From Candidatus Helarchaeota archaeon (lineage in GTDB: Archaea > Asgardarchaeota > Lokiarchaeia > Helarchaeales > RDOG01), in assembly GCA_019058315.1 (NCBI GenBank), contig JAHPZH010000005.1, forward strand, positions 96,001 to 160,000: 64,000 nucleotides of DNA, written 5' to 3'. Below the pieces are notes generated by a model, which was given only the letters and a program-made list of their open reading frames with translations, did no database searches and had not been told where the DNA came from. Below are positions 1 through 13,109 of the stretch, one piece after another. Both the position numbers and the translations under genes were made by a program. The number at the start of each line of letters is the position of its first letter. Position 1 is the first letter of the stretch.

Positions 1-2934
1 AAGAGATGTTTCTGGGAAATTGAATCGAACACTGACCATAGATATTGGGTTTACTGAATCAGTTAAAATTAAACCTAATTTTGCACCCGGCGTACTAGAA
101 CCCCCAAAGCATCTATGAACAACACTTGGACCGCTTGATTTGCCAGCGACTGAATAAAAACCATAACCTGAACCTGAACTTGTGGTAATACCAATTGTTC
201 GTTTATAATCCTTAGTGAAAGATCCTCCCCTTAACATCAGCGCTTCTTCTCCAATATAATATTCACGTGAATAATGTTCGACATCGGTCATAATTGACAT
301 ATATTTTGGATACCCTACTATAGTGGGAAGCACAGAACGAGGACCATCTTCTCCTGCAAAACCCGCATAACTAAAATTCGATCCTAATTCCAAACAGATG
401 GGGTTTCCTTTTGGATCTTTGTATACTTTCGGTTTTACCTTTTTGAGAGATTTGAATTTTATATCAATTTTTTGAATAAATTTTTGTATTTGCCTTTTAG
501 AATCACTCTTTATCAACATTTCATTAAGAACTGCTTTTATTTCGTTTGTAAGGGGAGAATCTTTTGTACAAATTGTATTAAAAATCCTTTCGCTAATATT
601 AATTAAACATTCATCTTCTTGTTCCTTTGTAATATGACCCTCTTTTGATAACTGATGAATATCTGTAACTATTTCTTGATACAAATCAATATTATTATCA
701 TCGATTTGGCTTATCTCATCTTCTGCAGCTATCATTAAGATGTTATTATCATTTACTAGAATCAAACTTTCAGAAATAATTTTTAAAATATTATAAATGA
801 GAGTTTTACTGTTTTTTTCTTTATTTTTTTCTGCAATTTCTTGAATAAGTTCAATTATTTTCCTCTTTACAAGCCTATGATTAACATCTTGTATCATCCC
901 AGCTTTCTTTGTAATTCTTAGAAATTCAAGCCCTGTACCAACTAACTTAGGATTGAGATAAATATAGTGAATTAGTGCATCTAATAGTGCATTAAAATAT
1001 GGTCCATATTCTTTTGTATCCCAACTCAATATTTCTGAATTATTTTTCTTGATAAATTCCTTTTTAAAAAATATTTCTAATGGAGTTTCAATTTTTCGTC
1101 CTAATTGGAGAACAGATGCATCAACTAACATAGCACCTAAGCAGCATGCTATAGCTTTATCATCTTGTAATATTTTAACTTGAAAATTAGCCTTATTACC
1201 GGGTTGATAAGTGCTTTTATCACTTTCAATATCAATTTTTAGCTCTTTTCTCTCAGGATTTACGTAAATCTTTCTTTCATTTTTTTCTAGGATACCATTT
1301 GATCTAAAAGCATATGTTATAACTTTTAAATTACCCCACATCTTTCTAGTGATTGGAATTTTAAAATCCGCCGTTCCCTCAGTTGCAAGCTTCACTGTTC
1401 TATAAATTATATTCTCCTTCTCGATATCGACATAGATAGGAATATTCTCCCTATCAACAACTGCATTTAAATGTAAAAAATCGTTAATATTTAAGCTAGG
1501 GGATTCTATGTTTGTATTAAGCCATATTTTTGGGTTTTCTTTTTCTCCTTCTTTCTGCTCTTTTTCTTCTTTTATTACTGCTTTTTCAACAGTCAGTCCT
1601 TTGCGGACTGTTTTGGATTCATCTAATAATTCCGATTCAATCATGATATTAATATCAAAATTCTTCTTTTTCTCTGTAGGATAATCAATTTCAAAAGTTA
1701 AGGGACATCTTCCTTCATTATCTGTTTTTGCTACTTTGAATTTTGCATGGTGTTTCAGCTCAGTATCATTTATCGAAGCTAAAACAAAACACTCGTTTAA
1801 TGGGACTTTTTTATTTTCTAGGGTTGGAACTTCTGTTTTAATTATTACTTCTGCTTGTTGACCTGGTTCAATACTTCTCGCCATATCTGTTGTTACGATC
1901 AAAGCTTGCTTTACTGTGCTAATTTTTATTTCCTTATTAGCTTTGCGTTTTAAACTGTCAGTAAGTTCAAATATAATTTTAGATTCTCCCTCTTTCATTT
2001 CAGGAACTTGGAACCTATAAATATATTCTCCTTTTTCATCTGTTTCCCCATAAGTTTGGAGAATTTGTTTATTTTCTGGTGATATAATTTCAATTTTAGC
2101 ATTGGCTTTTTTCACGGGTGCTCCGTAAAAATATTCGGACTTTAATTCGAGTCTAAATTCGTCCCCTATTTTTAGATATTCTGGTTCACATTTTACTTTC
2201 AATTCTATGTCTGGTGGTTGATAATTCTCGATTTTAATTGATTTTTCAGATTTAAAACCTTTAACCGAAACTTTAACTTTATAAACTCCTTCTATTGCCT
2301 CTTCAGCTATTGGAATTTGAAGTTCTCCTATCCCAAATTTAGAATCACATGAAATTTTTCTAATAAGTATCCTATTATTTTGTGGATCAGTTAATGTTAC
2401 TTTAATAGGCTCTTGACTTGGTTGATAAGTACTTCCTAACAGTTTCCAAAGGATAAAACGAATAAGTATCCTCTGTCCTGGCATGTAATAATCACGATCT
2501 GTAATCATATAGCATATATATTCTTCCTCTTTTCTGGTAAGATCCAACCTCAAAGTTTTTTCTTTTCCATCAATTTTAACCTTAATTTCATAAAATTTAT
2601 ATTCAGCATCAAATTCAAATTCCAATGAACCTAAATTATCTGTTAATCCCTTAAAAACAGTTTTATTGCCGTTGATCAACTTTACTTTACAATTAATGGG
2701 AAAAAAGTTCTGATCCATACAAATAATACGGCCAGAAATTTTCTCACCTTCTTCGAACTCCGAATTCATTTTAACAAAAATAAGTGGGGGTTCCCTTAAA
2801 TTCGAAATTTGACTGATCAGACTTTGAACTTTCTCAACATCTATTGAAGTTATTTGATTAAGAATATCCACATCAAGTTTATCTTTTTCTTTAATATTGA
2901 GGAGCCTTTTTAGTTTTTTACATGTTGTATCCAA
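1..2934 (-). CDS. Alpha-2-macroglobulin-family (MG-domain) protein, 3'-truncated by the window edge, with actin- and GTPase-derived peptides in the bait-region position
   Basis: Hand translation gives 978 stop-free codons from TTG at 2934 (SD-like AGGTGGT at 2947-2941) to base 1. A2M motifs occur in the expected order: MG2 ITDRDYYMPGQRILIR, ENYQPPDIEL, EYFYGAPV, SDKSTYQPG...LVDASVLQL and post-bait VRFNFPETSL. No N-terminal hydrophobic segment. Not in the supplied ORF track. Confidence 0.88.
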   Translation of the reverse strand, partial: MDTTCKKLKRLLNIKEKDKLDVDILNQITSIDVEKVQSLISQISNLREPPLIFVKMNSEFEEGEKISGRIICMDQNFFPINCKVKLINGNKTVFKGLTDNLGSLEFEFDAEYKFYEIKVKIDGKEKTLRLDLTRKEEEYICYMITDRDYYMPGQRILIRFILWKLLGSTYQPSQEPIKVTLTDPQNNRILIRKISCDSKFGIGELQIPIAEEAIEGVYKVKVSVKGFKSEKSIKIENYQPPDIELKVKCEPEYLKIGDEFRLELKSEYFYGAPVKKANAKIEIISPENKQILQTYGETDEKGEYIYRFQVPEMKEGESKIIFELTDSLKRKANKEIKISTVKQALIVTTDMARSIEPGQQAEVIIKTEVPTLENKKVPLNECFVLASINDTELKHHAKFKVAKTDNEGRCPLTFEIDYPTEKKKNFDINIMIESELLDESKTVRKGLTVEKAVIKEEKEQKEGEKENPKIWLNTNIESPSLNINDFLHLNAVVDRENIPIYVDIEKENIIYRTVKLATEGTADFKIPITRKMWGNLKVITYAFRSNGILEKNERKIYVNPERKELKIDIESDKSTYQPGNKANFQVKILQDDKAIACCLGAMLVDASVLQLGRKIETPLEIFFKKEFIKKNNSEILSWDTKEYGPYFNALLDALIHYIYLNPKLVGTGLEFLRITKKAGMIQDVNHRLVKRKIIELIQEIAEKNKEKNSKTLIYNILKIISESLILVNDNNILMIAAEDEISQIDDNNIDLYQEIVTDIHQLSKEGHITKEQEDECLINISERIFNTICTKDSPLTNEIKAVLNEMLIKSDSKRQIQKFIQKIDIKFKSLKKVKPKVYKDPKGNPICLELGSNFSYAGFAGEDGPRSVLPTIVGYPKYMSIMTDVEHYSREYYIGEEALMLRGGSFTKDYKRTIGITTSSGSGYGFYSVAGKSSGPSVVHRCFGGSSTPGAKLGLILTDSVNPISMVSVRFNFPETSL

Positions 2935-3166: not shown

Positions 3167-4333
3167 TTAGATTACACCATCTTTTTGTAGCTTAGAAATT
3201 TTTTCTGATGTATATCCCAATAATTCCGATAAAACTTCTATGTTATGCTGTCCTAATTCTGGTGCTTTAGTTTTAAAAGACCCAGGACTTTCGGATAATC
3301 TTATAAAAATATTTGGAAACCATGGTTTTTTTTCTGCTTTTGGAAAATCGAATTTATCAACTACCATTTGCCTTGCTATAATCTGAGGGTGTTTGTGTGC
3401 TTCCTCATATGGAACAATTCTTCCCGCCGGAATATGAGCTTTTTCAAGAATTTCCAATAGTTCTTTGACGTTTTTTGATTTAATCCATTCACGAAATATT
3501 GGAAATAATAAATCAGAATTTTCTCTTCGTAGTTTTGTATTTTTGAAGCGTCTATCTTTGAGCAAATCTGGTCTTTCTATTGCTTTACAAAAATTTCTAA
3601 ATTGTCGTTCTGTTGCAACCACAAGAGCAATTGATCCATCTTTTGCCTGATAACAATTATAAGTTGGACGGTCTTTTTCAAGTGTTTCTTTATCAATATA
3701 ACTTAGAATATGTGCCCGAAGATTGTAAGCAAACATCATATCTTGCATTGAAATATCAACGAATTGACCTTTTCCAGTTTTATCTCTAAAGCGTAGTGCC
3801 TCTAAAATCCCTAATGCAACATATGCACCTGCATTTAAATCAGAAAAAGGTATTCTTGGGGGATATGTATAAATTTCATATACATCTAAAATACCGCTTG
3901 TCGCTTGTGCTATTATATCAAATGCTGGTTTTCCCTTGTAAGGACCCGTTTGCCCAAATCCCGTAATTGCTGCATATATTAATTTAGGATTAATTTTTTT
4001 TAATTCTTCATAACCAAGACCTAATCGTGGCATAACATCAGGAGTAAAATTCTCTAATACCACATCAGTTTTTTTTACTAATTCTTTAAAAATTTCACGG
4101 GCTCTAGGTTTTTTAAAATCTAGAGTTATGGATTTTTTATTCCTATTTAAATATGTCAAAAGCGGGTCTATTTCTGGTCGGATCAAACAAGCTAACCTGA
4201 GTGTTTCGCCAAATCCTGGCATTTCAACCTTGATTACCTCCGCTCCCATATCTGCGAGAAGCTGAGATCCCCAAGGACCTGAAAAATATTGAGATAGATC
4301 CAGTACACGAATTCCCTCTAAAGCATCTTTCAT
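3167..4333 (-). CDS. CoA-transferase family III (CaiB/BaiF)
   Basis: LEGIRVLDLS, LADMGAEVIKVE, NRNKKSITLD, ENFTP, GFGQTGPY, APELGQHN motifs. Confidence 0.95.
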   Translation of the reverse strand: MKDALEGIRVLDLSQYFSGPWGSQLLADMGAEVIKVEMPGFGETLRLACLIRPEIDPLLTYLNRNKKSITLDFKKPRAREIFKELVKKTDVVLENFTPDVMPRLGLGYEELKKINPKLIYAAITGFGQTGPYKGKPAFDIIAQATSGILDVYEIYTYPPRIPFSDLNAGAYVALGILEALRFRDKTGKGQFVDISMQDMMFAYNLRAHILSYIDKETLEKDRPTYNCYQAKDGSIALVVATERQFRNFCKAIERPDLLKDRRFKNTKLRRENSDLLFPIFREWIKSKNVKELLEILEKAHIPAGRIVPYEEAHKHPQIIARQMVVDKFDFPKAEKKPWFPNIFIRLSESPGSFKTKAPELGQHNIEVLSELLGYTSEKISKLQKDGVI

Positions 4334-4446
4334 CTAATACCCTCTTTTCTAAAAAATTTATAAAATTTCGGTTGTAATAAAATATGATTTAATTAAAATG
4401 TAAATACTAAATTTAAAAAAATAAAAAAATTTGGGAAAGAAAAAAT

Positions 4447-4551
4447 CTAACGATCAATTTCTGATAAATCAAACCATTTTTCTAATTCTTCGATGTCTTC
4501 TGGGTCTAATTCTCCCCAATCGGGCCATTTTTCTTCTTTTTCTTCTTCCAT
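4447..4551 (-). CDS. 34-aa acidic, Trp-containing small protein (MEEEKEEKWPDWGELDPEDIEELEKWFDLSEIDR)
   Basis: ATG at 4551 preceded by SD-like AAGGTG, 11 nt after the stop of the upstream co-oriented gene; TAG at 4449-4447; below the ORF-track size cutoff. Confidence 0.6.
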   Translation of the reverse strand: MEEEKEEKWPDWGELDPEDIEELEKWFDLSEIDR

Positions 4552-4562
4552 CGGAACACCTT

Positions 4563-4808
4563 TTATAGATTTTTTTCAATCCATTCCTTTAAAGCTTCTT
4601 TTCCGGCTTTTTTTACGTTTTCCGCACTAAAGGAGCCATATTTTTTTACAATTGCTTTTTCTAATTTTGCAAAAGTATCATGTTCCATTACAAAATGCAT
4701 TCTAGGTTTCATTTCATTAAGAAAATATTCAACTATAGTGTCTTGCTCGCGCATATATTCAGAAATATCCTCTTTTTTTATTCCAGGCTTACCTAAAAAT
4801 TCTGCCAT
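4563..4808 (-). CDS. Small hypothetical protein, possible ribbon-helix-helix-like C-terminus
   Basis: ORF with SD-like GTGGTGA; beta-alpha-alpha pattern RMHFVM...EALKEWIEK. Confidence 0.6.
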   Translation of the reverse strand: MAEFLGKPGIKKEDISEYMREQDTIVEYFLNEMKPRMHFVMEHDTFAKLEKAIVKKYGSFSAENVKKAGKEALKEWIEKNL

Positions 4809-4829
4809 AATTAATCACCACTTTTTTGC

Positions 4830-5099
4830 TTATTTTACTCCCTTAGGTACTTTTAAAATCAAAAAATGGCCATCTAAAGGCCAATCGAGAACAACCCTCT
4901 TTCCTTGACTCCATGTACCCTGATAAACACCACCAGTACCGTCTGCCCAATTCGAAATTAGAGCACTGCAAAGTGTTTCAATTTTTAATCCAGCCTTTCT
5001 AGACCATTTTTTTAGTTTTTTCATGGTTTCCTCAGAAATTGAAACTTCTATCTTTTCATTTCTTTCTTCAGTAAAAAATTTTGATGGTTCTTTTGACAT
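4830..5099 (-). CDS. Small protein with CopG/ribbon-helix-helix-like N-terminal half
   Basis: KIEVSISEETMKKLKKWSRKAGLKIETLCSALISNW fits an RHH pattern; SD-like GTGGT upstream. Confidence 0.6.
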   Translation of the reverse strand: MSKEPSKFFTEERNEKIEVSISEETMKKLKKWSRKAGLKIETLCSALISNWADGTGGVYQGTWSQGKRVVLDWPLDGHFLILKVPKGVK

Positions 5100-5158
5100 T
5101 TTTTACCACTTCTTTTTAAAATTAATTTAATTTAAATATTTTACAAATCACCTTAAAC

Positions 5159-6628
5159 TCATTCTTTAAATGCCATTCTTTTATATGTTTTCGCCCAATA
5201 ACCGTCATAAAACAAAGAACTGACTGGAAATCTGGGAGGTGAAGCCATCCTAGGTGTTGCTGGAATTCCTATACTCAATGTTGTAGGAACTATCCAGCTC
5301 CCAGGAATTCCAAGTTTATCCATCCATACTTGTTTACGCCTAGTATCAGCCGCAGTAAGGGCATTAAAACCCATTCCAAGCCCAAGCACCGGACATAAAT
5401 TCCACATATTTTGAATTAACATCGATAAAACCATTGTTGCTGTACTTGTGCCTCCCATTCCACCCCTTGGTTCAAAGTTATATGATGTTTGTATACAAGG
5501 TATTATAGTTGCATAGCTACGTGCTGGATAATACATAAGACTGCCGTCAGCCATATATTCATTAATTTTGGGATATATTGCCTCAGGTAAATACCATAAT
5601 CTATCTGCAACCATCTTCCAAGGAACCATTCCGAAGACAAACTTTGACATTTCCATTCCGCATTTTCCTAGAAATAATTTAGCATCATGATCTCTTGGTT
5701 CCCGTAAGAGAACTAAACGAAAATTTTGCATATTAACCATAGAAGCGGTGTTTCTGGCAGCTTCTAATATTGCTTCAATTTTCCACTCGGGCACCTTACC
5801 GCCTCCATCCTGCTCGTAAACATCATGATTTTCTTTAAATATTCTAATTGATCGTCTTAGATAAATAGAATCAAATACATCCATGTTAAATTCGAAGTCT
5901 TCTGGCATTTGATCCTTTTCATTCACATTTTCTCTAAAAGCAATTCGTCGATAGGGTCTTCCCCAATATCCATCAAATACAAGGCGTTCTAACGGTAATT
6001 TTGGTGCACGTGCAGTTGGATATAGTCGATTACCTTGCTCAGGCATACCAAAACATAGCCCAGCGAAGAGTTCCCAATCATGAGGAACACCCAATTTATC
6101 CTTTATCATCATTGCAGTGCGTTCTGAAGCAAAGGGTGCTGTTACAATAGACATTCCTACATTTTTACCAACTGAAGCGGTCCACATATTTTGAATTCCG
6201 GTTGCACAGACTACTGCACCGAATTCTGGTGGAGCTACCATATAGGGAGTGTCATACCAATTGCCATTTCCTATAGCCAAAACGAAAGTATCACACTTTT
6301 CAATAATATCCCCAGCAGTCTCATTTTTTGTCCATTTTTCGATATATAGGGGGCGGACCTCTGGGGGTATATTTTTTAGTCGTTCATTTAAAAGTGGTGC
6401 AGGAAGCATAGTTTTTCCGTGAATGTGGATTTCTCTACACATTTTAGCAACCCAATTTTTTATATCCTCATCCTTAACAATTATAAACCGTAAATGCTGA
6501 ACATTCTCCGGCGAGGGGGCCCACCGAGCCGCGTCATAAATGCCTTCCATTACTTCAGGTTCTATTTCACGCTCTGGTTTAAAGGTTTTAACCGAGGACC
6601 TTAACATTAATGCATCATAAATATTCAT
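5159..6628 (-). CDS. Tandem two-domain nitroreductase-family flavoprotein
   Basis: Two copies of R(R/S)S(V/I)(K/R)xF ... WAPSPENVQ / NTASMVNMQ ... QNMW, each ending in PxLP/RFP...F(Y)DGYW. Confidence 0.9.
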   Translation of the reverse strand: MNIYDALMLRSSVKTFKPEREIEPEVMEGIYDAARWAPSPENVQHLRFIIVKDEDIKNWVAKMCREIHIHGKTMLPAPLLNERLKNIPPEVRPLYIEKWTKNETAGDIIEKCDTFVLAIGNGNWYDTPYMVAPPEFGAVVCATGIQNMWTASVGKNVGMSIVTAPFASERTAMMIKDKLGVPHDWELFAGLCFGMPEQGNRLYPTARAPKLPLERLVFDGYWGRPYRRIAFRENVNEKDQMPEDFEFNMDVFDSIYLRRSIRIFKENHDVYEQDGGGKVPEWKIEAILEAARNTASMVNMQNFRLVLLREPRDHDAKLFLGKCGMEMSKFVFGMVPWKMVADRLWYLPEAIYPKINEYMADGSLMYYPARSYATIIPCIQTSYNFEPRGGMGGTSTATMVLSMLIQNMWNLCPVLGLGMGFNALTAADTRRKQVWMDKLGIPGSWIVPTTLSIGIPATPRMASPPRFPVSSLFYDGYWAKTYKRMAFKE

Positions 6629-6646
6629 TTTTCACACCCTGCATCA

Positions 6647-7069
6647 TTAGCCTGCCATATCAGCCAATTTTTTTGAAAAATCAGGGTCTCTTGAAATTAT
6701 ACTGGAAGAAAATTGAAGACCTTCATTTAAATTAGCCATTATCCAACCTTTTCCTGCTCTTATTACCTTCATCAACATTCCTGGATTTTTGAATATCTCA
6801 ACACCATCTGCATCATTTATAAAACAAAAAATTACTTCTGGGGAAGGATACTCACCTGAACGAACTTTCATGATCAAGTTTTCATTTTTAAAATAAATTA
6901 TGAGATGAAACCGTTCTTCCCATTTCGAAGATTCTATACTACCATTGATTCTAAAGCCGATGACCTTTCCATCGTATGTAGAAATCCATTTTTTAACTGA
7001 TTCTTTGATTTTGTCAGATTTTGGAGCTTCTTTAGCTATAAATTCGACTAATTCGCGTATTTTTCCCAT
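6647..7069 (-). CDS. Hypothetical protein, SCP2 lipid-binding-like
   Basis: GEYPSPEVIF...MKVIRAGKGWI resembles SCP2-fold archaeal proteins; neighbours are acyl-CoA enzymes. Confidence 0.5.
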   Translation of the reverse strand: MGKIRELVEFIAKEAPKSDKIKESVKKWISTYDGKVIGFRINGSIESSKWEERFHLIIYFKNENLIMKVRSGEYPSPEVIFCFINDADGVEIFKNPGMLMKVIRAGKGWIMANLNEGLQFSSSIISRDPDFSKKLADMAG

Positions 7070-7295
7070 TTTTATCCCTTGTTTAAGTTTTTTTATTCTT
7101 AAAAAATATAAATTTTGTAAACAAAATAAAGTAGTAAGTAAATTTTAAGATATTTGTTTTCGATTTGTTTTGTTAGAGACTATGAATCCCTCCCTTTAGG
7201 AAAGAGTATCACAAACGTCTATTACTAATAAAATTAAAAAATAAAAGATAAAATTATTCAATAATACGTTAATCATTAATTGAGATGTTGATTGC

Positions 7296-8714
7296 TTGGA
7301 AATAGATTTTAACCCACTTTTTTATCCAAAATCTGTGGCAGTTTATGGAGCCAAAGAAAATAGGGCGGGATATATCACGCCTTTTCAAGAATTCAATTAT
7401 CAAGGTAAATTATTTCTCATCTCTGATAAAGAAGATGAAGTCTTTGGGATTAAATGTTATAGATCCATTTTTGATTTTCCTGATCCAGTCGATTTCGTGA
7501 TAATTGCAATTCGACGCGAATATGTATTACAGGCTATTAAAGATTGTAAAAAAAAGGGAGTAAAATTTGTCCATATCTTTACTGCAGGTTTCAGCGAAAA
7601 AGATAGTGAAGGAAAGGAAATTGAAGATAAAATATTAGAAGTTATTAATAAGGAGCCTAGAGGACCTCGAATAGTTGGACCTAACTGTATGGGATTATAT
7701 TCTCCGGAGGGAAGGTTGTCATTCGGTCCGAGCTTTTCGAGAGAAAGTGGTCCTGTAGGTGTTATAAGCCAGTCAGGAGCATTAGCATATAGATTTGTGT
7801 TTGATGGAATGTATCGAGGATTTAGATTCTCAAAATTAATCTCGTTAGGTAATAGTATTGATTTAACGATGTTAGATTTTCTAAAATATTTGAATCAAGA
7901 TCCAAAGACAAAAGTTATTTGTATTTATTCAGAGGGACTCTCTTCAAATCAAGGAAAGGATTTATTGAAAATTTTAAGGGAAGTTAAAAAACCAGTCGTT
8001 ATACTAAAAGGAGGTTTGTCAGAAGTCGGTAAAAGAGCTGCGATGTCCCATACAGGTTCTATAGCTTCGGATCAAAATGTTTGGAATTCAATTTTCAAAC
8101 AAACATCTGCAATTTCCGTCGAAAGTCTGACTGAACTTGCAGATCTTGCTCTTGCATTTTCTTATACAGATTTTCTTCCAAAAACTAAAAGAACTGCGAT
8201 CATGTCTTTTTCTGGTGGAATTTCAGTTGTCGGAGGAGATTTATGTACTAAAATTGGATTAGAAATTCCTCAATTCACAAGTCAAATTCGAGAAGAAATG
8301 AGAAAATATTTTCCTCCATGGGTTGAACCCCAGAATCCTTTAGATCTTCCTTCTATTTTTCGAAAACCACGAATGTTAGATATATATAGAAGTTTAGCAG
8401 AATCGGATTTTATAGATTCTGTCATCATTCAAGCACCTGGAAGGCTTGCGGACCCTTATTGGGATAAATTGAGACAGAGAAATCCAATTACTGTTCTAAA
8501 ATACTTAACAGAAGGTGGTGAAATTCTAAGAGAGCATAAAAAATTATATTTTATCTCATGTCCACCTTCTTATTTTTATCAAAAAAGAGAAATGATAAAA
8601 GAGAATTTCCTATCCCGTCGTTTTCCAGTATTTTTTTCGGTCCTTGACGCCGGTAGAGCGATATTAAAAATGAATGAATATTATTTAAAACAAGAAAAAT
8701 TAAGTCAATTATAA
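7296..8714 (+). CDS. ADP-forming acyl-CoA synthetase alpha subunit (CoA-binding, AcdA-like)
   Basis: LFYPKSVAVYGA, TAGFSE, GPNCMG, SQSG, SLGN, catalytic SHTGS, NPLDL. Confidence 0.9.
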   Translation: MEIDFNPLFYPKSVAVYGAKENRAGYITPFQEFNYQGKLFLISDKEDEVFGIKCYRSIFDFPDPVDFVIIAIRREYVLQAIKDCKKKGVKFVHIFTAGFSEKDSEGKEIEDKILEVINKEPRGPRIVGPNCMGLYSPEGRLSFGPSFSRESGPVGVISQSGALAYRFVFDGMYRGFRFSKLISLGNSIDLTMLDFLKYLNQDPKTKVICIYSEGLSSNQGKDLLKILREVKKPVVILKGGLSEVGKRAAMSHTGSIASDQNVWNSIFKQTSAISVESLTELADLALAFSYTDFLPKTKRTAIMSFSGGISVVGGDLCTKIGLEIPQFTSQIREEMRKYFPPWVEPQNPLDLPSIFRKPRMLDIYRSLAESDFIDSVIIQAPGRLADPYWDKLRQRNPITVLKYLTEGGEILREHKKLYFISCPPSYFYQKREMIKENFLSRRFPVFFSVLDAGRAILKMNEYYLKQEKLSQL

Positions 8715-8716
8715 AA

Positions 8717-9304
8717 TTAAGAGATTAATAATAATCCAAAGTATTTCAGTTCGTCTAGATTTTTTTCAGTTATAGTTTCAAGATTAAGACCAACTTTTTT
8801 CACTGTCGAAAATACATCAATCCCAACTGCTTCCATAGAGGGTCTAGCTTTATTTCTATGTCTACAAAATGTCCGTGCGACTAAAGGATCGATATCATCA
8901 TCCAATTCTTGCTTAATACATTTTTTACACAACAAACAACTTCCTGTAGAAAAAGCAAAAGCTTTAGGATAATTTAATTGAAATGCTTTCTTTTCTAATT
9001 TAACCATGGTTTTTTGCATTTTTTTATGATTTTGCATTAAAGGACCTGAAACTTCGCCTTTAAAGCCGATAAGAAGTGCGTGTGTATAATCTTTGATAAA
9101 TTTTTTTGTTTCCTCTATACTTGGGACAAAGGGAGGACAACATAAGGTATTTCCATAGACTTCGCACCCAAACATACATTTCCAACGTGGCCATCCATCA
9201 ACTACTACTTTTTCAGCCGGAATATATTTGGTGAATTCTCGAGATGCTCCCCACTTAACAGCAGAATCAGTTAGAATTTGAATAAGTTCATTAATTTCAT
9301 CCAT
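8717..9304 (-). CDS. DUF2284-type predicted metal-binding protein
   Basis: RWKCMFGCEVYGNTLCCPP, GSCLLCKKC, CRH...ARPSMEAVGIDV. Confidence 0.85.
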   Translation of the reverse strand: MDEINELIQILTDSAVKWGASREFTKYIPAEKVVVDGWPRWKCMFGCEVYGNTLCCPPFVPSIEETKKFIKDYTHALLIGFKGEVSGPLMQNHKKMQKTMVKLEKKAFQLNYPKAFAFSTGSCLLCKKCIKQELDDDIDPLVARTFCRHRNKARPSMEAVGIDVFSTVKKVGLNLETITEKNLDELKYFGLLLIS

Positions 9305-9408
9305 TTTAATTACCAGAAAATTGAATTCTTTGAAACTATTAGATGAATCTATTTTAGAGATATAAGTTTGATTAAAAAGTAAAGACTATTTTTCTTATTT
9401 GATTTTTA

Positions 9409-10209
9409 TTATTTCTTTTTACTATTTACATGGTTTAGGAATGCTTTAACAACCATATGGAACTTGGGATCAGGCACAACGGAGAGATGGTCTCTGCCTT
9501 GTATCTGAAAATGACAGGCACCTGGAATTAGATTTGATATCAATGTTTTATTTTGAATTAAGATATCATTAGAACCCACTACGGTCATTACAGGTACTTT
9601 AATTTTTTTGAGAGCTTTTTTCATTTTTGAACGAGTCGTAAACTCTTCTTCTGCTTCTTGAAAATTACCCTCCATTACCGCGGCCAAAGCCTTTAGATCG
9701 CTACCTGTAGACTCCGCAAATGTTCGAAATTGACGAGCTACTGCATCATTTATTTCGTCTAGACTTTCTGCCCTTAATGCATCTACCATAACCCTAAACA
9801 TTGAATTAATTTGTTTTGTAGTTTTAGAGGGTAATGTTAGTCCATATCCGCCTAAAATAGCACAATTAAAACGTTGTAGCTCTCGGACTAATAAACCTAA
9901 AGTGATTCGAGCACCCATAGAATAACCAAAGAAGTTTGCTTTTTTAATAGATAAATGATCCATAAGTTTGGTGACATCTTCCAACATTTTTATACCATAT
10001 TGAGCTGGGTCTGTTGGTTTATCGCTTTTTCCATGACCTCGACAATCAATTAAAATTAGTCTATTCTCATTCTTTAGAACCTTTATCCAATTTGTTGCTC
10101 TCCAATTAAAGTCGATATTAGCTGCAAATCCATGAATCATAATTAGATCTGGACCTGATCCTTCAATTTCATAGTAAATCTTAACTCCCTCATTATCAAA
10201 AAATGGCAT
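9409..10209 (-). CDS. Alpha/beta hydrolase
   Basis: HGF oxyanion motif, DCRGHGKS, nucleophile GYSMG, GSND, GRDH. Confidence 0.92.
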   Translation of the reverse strand: MPFFDNEGVKIYYEIEGSGPDLIMIHGFAANIDFNWRATNWIKVLKNENRLILIDCRGHGKSDKPTDPAQYGIKMLEDVTKLMDHLSIKKANFFGYSMGARITLGLLVRELQRFNCAILGGYGLTLPSKTTKQINSMFRVMVDALRAESLDEINDAVARQFRTFAESTGSDLKALAAVMEGNFQEAEEEFTTRSKMKKALKKIKVPVMTVVGSNDILIQNKTLISNLIPGACHFQIQGRDHLSVVPDPKFHMVVKAFLNHVNSKKK

Positions 10210-10260
10210 TATTATCCTTCTCCAATTTTTTTATGACTAAATAATTAAAGTATTATTAAT

Positions 10261-11508
10261 TTATTCAAAGAACTTTTCTTCGGTATATTCTGCTCCAACT
10301 GCATCTTTTTCTACATCTCGAGCTTCGATTTCAGGTATTTGTTGAAGTTCTTTATAATATTCATGTTGAATTAATAGATTCATTATTTCATTAGTCCCAG
10401 TCCATATTGTTGTAAGTCTAGCATCTCTCAAAAGTCTTTCTATTGGATAAACGTTCGTATAACCAATTCCTCCTAATATTTGCATAGCATGATTTATTAT
10501 TTGCCAATTCGCATCAGTGGAAAACTTTTTTGATTGACTTACCATTCGACGAATAACACCAGAATTCATCCCATCATTAGCATCGATATGCCTAGCAGTT
10601 GAGTAAACTAAACATCTTGCAGCATCAAGTAAGGTTATACAGTCGGCTATTTTAAATGAAACTCCTTGATACTTCATGATTGGGCTTCCAAATGCTTTTC
10701 GACGGGTGCTATATCTCGCAGCAATCTCTAATGCAGCTCTTCCAGAACCAATAGCACCACCTGCGCTGGTCATTCTTTCTGGGATCATCATTTGATTAAA
10801 AATTAATCCACCCATATTTAATTTACCTATTAGATTTTCTTCTGGAACTTCAACATCTTTGAAAAATAGTCTACCAGTTCCACCACCACGAGACCCCATG
10901 AGCCCATAGACATGTTTTACTTCAACTCCAAAATCTCTTTCAATAAGGAGCACACTTATTGATTGGTGTGGATCAGAAGTTTTTGGGGCCGTTTTAACAT
11001 AAACTAGAAAAACATCGGCACCTTCTGAACCAACCACGAATCTTTTCTGTCCATTTACAATAAAATATCCATTCTTTTTTTCTGCTAAACAGGTAGCACC
11101 AAAAAAATCTGAGCCGCCCCTAGGTTCAGTTAGAGCTTCAGCACAAAACATTTTTCCCTTTAGAATAGGCTCGAGATATTTCGTTTTTTGTTCCTCATTG
11201 CCAAATCTATTAATTGCCTCCCCGATTATACTGACAAGTGAATATAAACATGCTAATGAGCAACCTAAAACTCCTATTTCCTCTAAAGCTGCGATCTCTG
11301 CGACCCAGTTGAGCCCTTGCCCTCCATACTTTTTCGGAAATCTAACGCCTAATAATCCTTCTTTGGCAAGTCCCTGCACATATTCCTTTGGATATTGAAT
11401 TTCTTCTTTATCCATTTTTCGTAATAAATCATGAGGTACATTTCTTACATATTCTCTCGTTCTATATTTTATATTTTTTTGTTCCTTGTCTAAAAAAATG
11501 TCATACAT
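10261..11508 (-). CDS. Acyl-CoA dehydrogenase
   Basis: ALTEPRGGSD, NGQKRF, RKAFG, QILGGIGY, RDAR...GTNEI. Confidence 0.95.
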   Translation of the reverse strand: MYDIFLDKEQKNIKYRTREYVRNVPHDLLRKMDKEEIQYPKEYVQGLAKEGLLGVRFPKKYGGQGLNWVAEIAALEEIGVLGCSLACLYSLVSIIGEAINRFGNEEQKTKYLEPILKGKMFCAEALTEPRGGSDFFGATCLAEKKNGYFIVNGQKRFVVGSEGADVFLVYVKTAPKTSDPHQSISVLLIERDFGVEVKHVYGLMGSRGGGTGRLFFKDVEVPEENLIGKLNMGGLIFNQMMIPERMTSAGGAIGSGRAALEIAARYSTRRKAFGSPIMKYQGVSFKIADCITLLDAARCLVYSTARHIDANDGMNSGVIRRMVSQSKKFSTDANWQIINHAMQILGGIGYTNVYPIERLLRDARLTTIWTGTNEIMNLLIQHEYYKELQQIPEIEARDVEKDAVGAEYTEEKFFE

Positions 11509-11690
11509 GATTATTTAGCTCCATCTATTCTTTTTAAGATTTTTTTTCTATTTGGTTTTTTCATAGATACTTTAGACTTTTATCTTTAAATATTGGTAGT
11601 TTCTATTGTCTTTTATTATTTTAAATATAAGGTTTAGAGATTTTTTAATATTTGATGAACATAACTTAGTTTTCATAAATCTATGGTTGA

Positions 11691-13109
11691 ATGCTTATGG
11701 ACTCAAAACATTCTGAAAAAGTACCACTTAAACAAAAGTTAGGTTATTCATTTGGTGCAATCCCTGGCGGATTACTCGCGTTTGTGTTTACTATATATTA
11801 TGTTGAATTTTTTTACAATGATTTAAAACTATTACCTATTTATTTTATCGTAGGACAGATTATATATGCAATTGTTAATGCATTTAATGATCCTCTCCTT
11901 GGTCAACTCTCAGATCGTACAGATCGCAAGAAATGGGGAGGAAGAAGAATTCCTTATATAAAATATGGAGCACCTATCTGGGTACTAACATATATTATGA
12001 CTTGGTTCCCCTGGAGCTTTGATAATCAAATCATAATTTTTCTTCATTTTGTTGTGAGTATTTGTGCATACGATACTATGCTAACCCTAGTAATTTTATG
12101 CTGGATGGCGTTAGTTCCGGAAATGACATCAGATATAGACGAACGTAATAAAATTAATTTTCTAACCTTATTAGTCGGTTTTTTTGGTATACTACCATTC
12201 TTTATTATCATGCCTGGTGCAAAAGCAGCGGGTTTGGGACCTTTTCAATTTGTAAATATCATAATTGGAATAATTTCTTTGATATGTTATTTTATTGTCG
12301 CAGCAACTAACAAAGAGAAACCTGAATTTCAGAAAGATGAAGTTTTTCCTCTTATAAAATCAGCAAAAGAAACTGTTAAATTAAAATCATTTTTACTATT
12401 TATTGGTTATAATTTTTGTGGAGTTTTAAAAGGATCTATTAGTTTAAGTTATATTTTCGTTTTTGCTTATATTCTAGGTGGGGAACCATCTGATGCTATA
12501 ATTTTGTTTTTACTAGTCTATTTACCTGTTTCTTATGTTTCATATATATTTTGTATGAGTTTAAATTCAAGATCAAATTGGAGTATGCGGAAAATTATCT
12601 TAATTTTTGGGTCATTACAAGTTATAGGAAATATTGTTATATTTCTGCTTATAATTAATCCACAAACCGAATCATTAGTCTGGTTTGGGCTTGTTTGGAC
12701 GACTTTCTTTGGGGGTTATGGTATATTTACAACATCTATAATGAGTCTCTCAATGGATGAGGATGAAGTCAATCAAGGAACTCGTAGAGAAGGTATGTTC
12801 TTAGGAATGAATGCTTTATTTACAAAACCCGCAAATAGTATAGGGCCTATATTTGCCACATTTATTCTTGAAGCATCTGGGTATTTAAAAGGTTTGTTAT
12901 TGATGAGTCGTTCTCTTTTTCAGTTACCAGAAGCATTGTTTGGAATAAAAATACTATTTTTAATAATTCCTGCAATTTTTTCACTAATTAGTTTTATTTT
13001 TATGTATTTTTACCCACTGCATGGTGAGACATTAAAAGAACTACAGTCAAAATTAGAAGAACTTCATAAGAAAAAAAGAGAAAAATTAGTATCGAATTCA
13101 GAAAAATAA
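11691..13109 (+). CDS. MFS transporter, GPH/MelB-like glycoside symporter
   Basis: NAFNDPLLGQLSDRT...GRRIPY, D(EDE)...RREG; about 12 hydrophobic segments. Confidence 0.9.
   Translation: MLMDSKHSEKVPLKQKLGYSFGAIPGGLLAFVFTIYYVEFFYNDLKLLPIYFIVGQIIYAIVNAFNDPLLGQLSDRTDRKKWGGRRIPYIKYGAPIWVLTYIMTWFPWSFDNQIIIFLHFVVSICAYDTMLTLVILCWMALVPEMTSDIDERNKINFLTLLVGFFGILPFFIIMPGAKAAGLGPFQFVNIIIGIISLICYFIVAATNKEKPEFQKDEVFPLIKSAKETVKLKSFLLFIGYNFCGVLKGSISLSYIFVFAYILGGEPSDAIILFLLVYLPVSYVSYIFCMSLNSRSNWSMRKIILIFGSLQVIGNIVIFLLIINPQTESLVWFGLVWTTFFGGYGIFTTSIMSLSMDEDEVNQGTRREGMFLGMNALFTKPANSIGPIFATFILEASGYLKGLLLMSRSLFQLPEALFGIKILFLIIPAIFSLISFIFMYFYPLHGETLKELQSKLEELHKKKREKLVSNSEK

Follow-up and report, generated by a model that had tools for sequence, protein, structure and literature searches.

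In the genome of a Candidatus Helarchaeota archaeon (GCA_019058315.1), an actin gene has very probably been split in two: its N-terminal piece lies in the bait region of a thioester protein of the alpha-2-macroglobulin (A2M) family, and the remainder is a neighbouring gene of the same operon. The window analysed here, a stretch of 64,000 nucleotides (contig JAHPZH010000005.1, positions 96,001 to 160,000), holds the 5' part of the A2M gene with the actin piece inside it. A first-pass annotation, made from the letters of the window, had described a fragment of 59 codons at positions 226-402, in frame with the A2M bait. This reading is confirmed: the fragment sits in a stop-free open reading frame (ORF), bracketed by the MG6 motif LVDAS (aa 603) and the motif that follows the bait (aa 967). 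The 59 codons are real, and the homology extends two codons further, to position 408.

The actin piece and its missing half

The identity of the piece is supported at several levels. The 59-mer matches Pfam Actin positions 7-53 above the curated cut-off (E 7e-8), and positions 5-55 align to aa 844-901 of the full A2M. The host has one canonical Lokiactin (contig C5, 296556-297689), to whose residues 7-67 the piece aligns by BLAST with 41/61 identities (67%; E 1e-28), bearing out the proposed Lokiactin type. In Lokiactin numbering, which counts Met as 1, G67 equals alpha-actin G63 by alignment to a solved actin; the piece thus corresponds approximately to alpha-actin 5-63, comprising subdomain 1 strands, a dead P1 loop and subdomain 2. 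A search of the host's own genome with the Actin profile returned a second match 4 kb outside the window (Pfam 64-408). This truncated actin is the exact complement of the piece at G67|V68, and together they cover Lokiactin 7-375 with zero overlap. It is the last of four tightly packed minus-strand genes (A2M, vWA 1, vWA 2, truncated actin) and is preceded by an RBS-like GAGGTG (a candidate ribosome-binding site). Its identity to the host Lokiactin is 43%, and its phosphate-2 and adenosine motifs are gone.

Judged by sequence, the pair is not a Lokiactin. In place of a single chain of ~375 aa there is a chain split at 67|68, nucleotide-site positions match at 5/25 with no intact phosphate-1, phosphate-2 or adenosine motif found, and barbed-face identity (0.27) is no better than in control paralogs. 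The D-loop is of Lokiactin type, matching the consensus at 13/14 positions.

The piece is under purifying selection. Its P1 loop is degenerate (DNGTG to ELGSN, with K replaced by Y), as the first-pass annotation had read it from the sequence. Alignment to the host actin gene, the check proposed there, gave 64% nucleotide identity. In the subdomain-2 part 29/35 residues are identical, with proportions of nonsynonymous and synonymous differences (pN and pS) of 0.12 and 0.83, and in the P1 part 12/26 are identical; dN/dS was mostly undefined because dS is saturated. High protein identity beside saturated synonymous sites agrees with the earlier view that the fragment is no ATPase and is selectively maintained, with an exposed, preserved subdomain 2 and the D-loop as its conserved core. 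Among the orthologs of clade 1 (six loci labelled Lokiarchaeia, Freyarchaeota and Helarchaeota), identity is 78% in the subdomain-2 part, 60% in TED, 59% in the partner, 50% in the helical insert and 21% in the linker. The idea that the fragment is kept as a substrate mimic and not as an ATPase survives in part: it is not an ATPase, and neither is it a free-standing peptide, being the N-terminal half of a split actin. Because the operon encodes its other half as a separate gene, the N-terminal strands are presumably kept partly for folding with the partner.

Could the split be an accident, the neutral remains of an actin paralog disrupted by rearrangement or misassembly? A copy of the Lokiactin C-terminus in the linker (see below) suggests that a full actin was formerly in the bait, with reciprocal deletions producing the split. 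However, the arrangement is kept in 23 proteins across several Asgard classes, with intact ORFs, split points that move together, and synonymous saturation alongside low pN. One contig spans the operon at flat read depth, in a run that is possibly the source run, and the DNA identity of 64% is far from the complete identity that a misassembly would leave. Misassembly and neutral decay, the two outcomes named beforehand as fatal to the first reading, are ruled out by the orthologs, by low pN with saturated pS and by the flat depth, and we consider an accidental origin hardly credible.

By every sequence feature tested, the protein that carries the piece is an A2M-family member and not one of the secreted type. 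Its ORF starts at window position 2934 and continues past the window's 5' end; in full it encodes 1650 aa (G000:C2:93982-98934, genome contig), the 3' part, to position 93982, lying outside the window on the minus strand. Pfam matches are MG2, A2M_BRD, A2M, TED and bMG10. Pfam, AlphaFold2 and Foldseek give the order found in A2M, namely MG domains, a CUB with inserted TED, then MG8, and the CxEQ thioester motif is present as CVEQ at aa 1185-1188. The bait insert is within MG6, between aa 607 and 967, and is partly disordered and hypervariable. An AlphaFold2 model of aa 460-1650 reached a mean confidence (pLDDT) of 79.8: the A2M domains and the helical insert fold confidently, and aa 829-962 are left unfolded. 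Foldseek matched the model to CD109 (E 1e-41); it is closest to native-state CD109, A2ML1 and TEP1 (TM ~0.5, against ~0.27 for activated forms). A fold search with the helical insert gave generic helical matches alone (best Z 8-10, mixed root-mean-square deviations) and no specific fold. Hydropathy revealed no N-terminal hydrophobic segment. The maximum 17-aa hydropathy within the first 60 aa was at most 1.18 in 14 actin-bearing A2Ms and at least 2.07 in 4/5 comparison A2Ms; by this measure, which is not a dedicated predictor, neither a signal peptide nor a lipobox was found in the actin-bearing proteins.

Table 1. Positions of the A2M gene, its parts and the genes of its operon (window positions unless a locus or genome contig is named).
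Feature	Position	Strand	Basis or remark
A2M-family thioester protein, 5' part (aa 1-978)	1..2934	-	stop-free ORF, Pfam
All-helical domain, ~190 aa (aa 640-830), in MG6 ahead of the actin piece	445..1017	-	model
Actin N-terminal piece (aa 843-903), Lokiactin 7-67	226..408	-	BLAST, Pfam
D-loop core (aa 874-887)	274..315	-	most conserved part across all 23 actin-bearing A2Ms
Hypervariable linker (aa 904-966), classical bait-like stretch	37..225	-	21% identity among orthologs
Small-GTPase switch-I look-alike (aa 905-915) in linker	190..222	-	p<0.001 against 1000 shuffles
Copy of host Lokiactin C-terminus (aa 932-943), 9/12 identical	106..141	-	best host-proteome 12-mer match
vWA protein 1, 342 aa	L001:12937-13965	-	outside the window
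vWA protein 2, 345 aa	L001:11895-12932	-	outside the window; 57% identical to vWA protein 1
N-terminally truncated actin, 308 aa	L001:10962-11888 = G000:C2:90962-91888	-	starts at Lokiactin V68

PADLOC 2.0 (2023 library) returned 0 profile matches for the four operon proteins. The upstream neighbours in the window (3167-13109) have an ordinary metabolic look by sequence (CoA-transferase, nitroreductase-like, acyl-CoA synthetase/dehydrogenase, MFS transporter), and in L016 and L019 the operon likewise has similar acyl-CoA genes beside it. The DNA 4.5 kb beyond the operon encodes a membrane-anchored protein of 1570 aa and a Rab-like GTPase (L001:1208-6451, plus strand). Elsewhere in the host genome is a third actin-like protein of ~570 aa, 27% identical to Lokiactin and with a C-terminal extension (G000:C5:147758-149482, L005).

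Distribution and the moving split point

A2M genes were found in 45/400 Asgard genomes searched. We inspected 27 of these 45, leaving out the loci of P0134-P0136, P0139, P0146 and P0254, and 7/27 carried the actin piece; the 23 piece-bearing A2Ms compared come from several Asgard classes. The same piece and architecture recur in five orthologs from other samples, at 54-59% identity, and wherever flanking DNA is available the gene order is A2M, vWA and a truncated actin that begins at residue 68. An ortholog at 54% identity falls in a cluster labelled Helarchaeota. Scanning genome and metagenome contigs for patterns gave mostly bacterial A2Ms and added only L028 and L108. L028 and L189 are the same 5332-bp contig, titled Bathyarchaeota in a genome placed in the host's class, and probably represent a mislabelled bin.

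The cut point varies by lineage (after ~49, 52, 60, 62 or 65-67), and the start of the partner shifts along with it. In seven loci the piece ends at residue 49 and the adjacent actin is kept from ~52-54 onward; the stretch that the partner retains there is inside the A2M in clade 1. The partner lies downstream in four of these loci and upstream in three, with no vWA gene between. Three further split types fall after ~52, 60 and 62. A complementary partner was found in 16/17 examined loci, and by uniform measurement piece end and partner start are -2 to +4 residues apart in 15/16. The two positions correlate with rho 0.93 over loci, which are kin and not independent, and with 0.9 (p 0.037) over the five split types.

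The sole exception is P0168 (Heimdallarchaeota), whose A2M has kept just the D-loop peptide of 20 aa and whose locus contains no actin partner. Upstream of it, a TPR-like gene (L248:5139-6944, plus strand) has a short, near-exact N-terminal match to actin 61-71 (E 0.067); by its sequence, this may be what is left of a partner, rebuilding subdomain 2 alone. Most clade-2/3 partners (L008:7270-8289, L027:9834-10922, L108, L189-L192) carry an N-terminal extension of 15-40 aa, in which a double-tyrosine motif recurs, in front of the actin-like part. Confined to clades 1 and 4, the vWA gene is conserved in the former and degenerate in L249; none was seen in loci of clades 2, 3 and 5. CxEQ is retained in 20/22 actin-bearing A2Ms checked. 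At L252:1375-8324 (plus strand) the A2M occupies two ORFs (807 + 1348 aa), with YVEQ in place of the thioester Cys motif and a truncated actin upstream. Lokiactin itself has a frame change near residue 345 in L236 / L245 (G178:C352), probably an assembly error.

A second Asgard A2M type of ~2000 aa (L009-L013, L193-L194, L196-L207) occurs in several families and has intact CxEQ. It has an N-terminal hydrophobic segment, no actin piece and no adjacent actin, and the Asgard literature searched makes no mention of it. A 1635-aa A2M without signal segment, thioester motif or piece (L195:4235-9139, plus strand) groups loosely with the actin-bearing proteins. Support for monophyly of the actin-bearing A2Ms is weak (SH-aLRT 61; three proteins without the piece fall among them), so a single origin is not shown. 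The base of the partner-actin tree is likewise unresolved, and its shallow groupings agree with the A2M tree.

Conserved surfaces and candidate functions

We compared 15 reassembled pairs with 16 other divergent Asgard actin paralogs, each against the Lokiactin consensus, using contact positions that we assumed from general knowledge of F-actin. Overall identity was similar (0.36 in pairs vs 0.33 in controls). The D-loop stood at 0.86 vs 0.32 and the rest of subdomain 2 at 0.66 vs 0.38, while the nucleotide site (0.25 vs 0.45) and the barbed face (0.23 vs 0.28) were lower in the pairs. In three cases with Heimdall-type hosts the pieces carry Heimdall-type D-loop variants, and such lineage-matched D-loops suggest co-evolution with, or recapture from, the host gene. 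A phylum-wide search with the D-loop peptide found canonical actins alone among the matches listed.

A complex model of A2M aa 630-950 with the truncated actin scored 0.87, against 0.05 for the best of three controls; the mark used for this score is attained by 58/80 solved pairs and 2/110 mismatched pairs. Runs agreed in at least 62% of contacts, with a partner pLDDT of at least 83, and the piece without its partner was unfolded (pLDDT <50). The predicted interface comprises aa 842-878, aa 892-902 and the end of the helical insert, whose last helix contacts the partner. The D-loop (aa 879-891) is not named in it, unnamed residues being merely uncertain, and packing is therefore an unlikely cause of D-loop conservation. 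The model indicates compatibility of the halves and not binding, as the two parts of a divided gene may score well simply by resembling solved actin.

The linker offers further look-alikes. Its match to the Lokiactin C-terminus scores above all 25 shuffles, and the next-best 12-mer matches in the host proteome include several small-GTPase switch-I loops. The host has ~35 small-GTPase ORFs with the switch-I motif; a profile of 35 such loops scores 3/6 clade-1 linkers at p<=0.001, and the actin C-terminal look-alike is present in 4/6 at p<=0.003. From sequence, neither has an evident folding or capping role. Two other candidates were rejected. LRGG after the piece was considered as a ubiquitin mimic; this gained no support, since in most clades the piece is followed by GG, and a host ubiquitin ending in LRGG was not evident. 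Matches of YYRGG to host proteins are, by rough estimate, no better than chance.

Given these results, we favour, at somewhat better than even confidence, a cytoplasmic integrated-decoy trap in which a nucleotide-dead actin, folded in trans from two chains, serves as the decoy. Whether this is, more broadly, an intracellular complement/A2M-type immune trap guarding the Asgard cytoskeleton, in some cases also small GTPases, with a split decoy refreshed to the host D-loop and natural enemies of Lokiactin implied, we consider evenly balanced. In such a trap, the bait piece and partner would come together as a single actin fold that leaves the D-loop clear of the interface, and the dead actin would show a native-looking subdomain 2 to an attacker of Lokiactin, the simplest candidate being a delivered protease. 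Cleavage at or close to the D-loop, or within the switch-I or C-terminal look-alikes, would break the bait chain, releasing the A2M conformational change so that the thioester could bond to the attacker; the vWA protein might act as an optional reader or adaptor. A whole actin in the bait would remain folded after a D-loop nick. With the gene cut just after the D-loop, only 0-18 residues would be clamped by the partner, so a D-loop nick would nearly sever the bait. The actin D-loop is a site of proteolysis, at Gly42 and Met47 (PMC7956362), and actin-cleaving proteases are delivered between cells (PMC9505478). Bait cleavage in the A2M family leads to collapse and thioester exposure, with monomeric members relying on covalent capture (PMC9156758); the trigger needs a true bait discontinuity, and a cut within a disulfide-closed loop has no effect (PMC9352918).

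Several points weigh against such a trap. Hydropathy alone places the protein in the cytoplasm, and we know of no attacker of Asgard actin. The canonical thioester motif is lost in two members (P0149 YVEQ, P0168 CVDQ), and neither linker look-alike was found in the other clades. A D-loop cut in clade 1 leaves residues ~50-67 bound to the partner, which may blunt triggering under the rule cited above (PMC9352918). Finally, the subdomain-4 pointed face is better kept in the pairs (0.59 overall, 0.75 in clade 1) than in controls (0.43), a retention equally predicted by a role at the filament end.

We infer that proteases are the intended target of the piece; a filament-binding role fits the same conservation pattern. 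In that alternative, the pseudo-actin would add through its pointed face (D-loop and subdomain 4) to the barbed end of Lokiactin as a cap or tether; lacking a barbed face, it would stop growth or anchor the A2M to the cytoskeleton, and bait cleavage could release or activate the cap. Retention of the whole pointed face beside loss of the barbed face is what it predicts, the D-loop of one protomer reaches between subdomains 1 and 3 of the one that follows (PMC7956362), and tracking of the host D-loop suits docking as well as mimicry. However, it leaves unexplained why the bait of a thioester protein is the site, why the actin is split and not fused whole, and why switch-I look-alikes occur; it is also at odds with P0168, where the D-loop peptide stands without a partner. 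Its contact sets are those assumed from general F-actin knowledge, and the patchy presence of the piece (7/27 inspected A2M genomes, of 400 searched) would be more usual for a conflict system than for a core regulator of the cytoskeleton. We rate a cap or tether as unlikely, though a serious contender.

Rather less probable again is a non-proteolytic sensor or switch. Here the pseudo-actin would bind either a host protease or a factor that recognises the D-loop (a modifying toxin, a binder resembling DNase I, or one of the host's actin regulators). This binding, or loss of the partner, would free the bait, and the output would be signalling through the vWA protein in place of trapping. In complement, vWA domains read activated thioester proteins, and the vWA gene conserved in clade 1 and degenerate in L249, together with the two lost thioester motifs, would suit this. 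By contrast, the vWA gene was not seen in clade 2, 3 and 5 loci, and a bait location with a hypervariable linker is a hallmark of protease sensing.

Comparison with known systems

In the searchable literature, outside which most subscription papers lie, we found nothing comparable to a naturally split actin whose cut point is lineage-specific and which has one half in a thioester protein, and nothing relevant on Asgard together with macroglobulin, thioester, D-loop or decoy. Macroglobulin is unmentioned in PMC11291487, PMC9834061 and bioRxiv 2024.07.03.601958. If the decoy trap is true, it would be sequence evidence of antagonists that attack Asgard actin at the D-loop, would offer a covalent tool for fishing out the attacker, and would mean that the nearest lineage to eukaryotes has both integrated-decoy immunity and an intracellular thioester protein. 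A filament cap, if true, would be a new class of actin regulator.

Known A2M proteins are secreted, periplasmic or exposed on the surface, and their baits are short and disordered. The Asgard protein shares with the superfamily (sequence E 6e-24; CD109 8s3o, A2ML1 7q1y, A2M 6tav, Anopheles TEP1 2pn5, E. coli ECAM 5a42, Salmonella A2M 4u48) the MG/CUB/TED/MG8 order, CxEQ and the MG6 insert. It differs in lacking a signal peptide or lipobox and in its ~350-aa bait insert, which includes a helical domain and a folded piece of a host protein completed by a second gene. Compared with Lokiactin and Asgard actin-related proteins (PMC9834061; HC1 actin 9wc4), the piece and partner are 67% and 43% identical to the host Lokiactin; unlike Lokiactin, the pair consists of two polypeptides with a dead nucleotide site and a degenerate barbed face, and its D-loop is far more Lokiactin-like than that of any control paralog. 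Integrated-decoy receptors (plant NLRs, doi 10.1101/2020.12.01.406389; protease-sensing NLRP1) likewise hold a copy of a host target in a sensor with only the exposed surface conserved; the thioester trap and the split decoy folding in trans set the present case apart, and the likeness is one of analogy, not homology.

The natural split points (after ~actin 47 and 63) also fall at exposed sites that are nicked in actin in vitro. Subtilisin nicks actin at Met47, ECP32/protealysin at Gly42, and trypsin cuts at Arg62/Lys68, the nicked fragments staying associated. Documented nick sites are Gly42, Met47 and Leu67 (PMC7956362). In contrast to protease-nicked actin, the actin described here is divided at the level of the genes, with one half built into a different protein.

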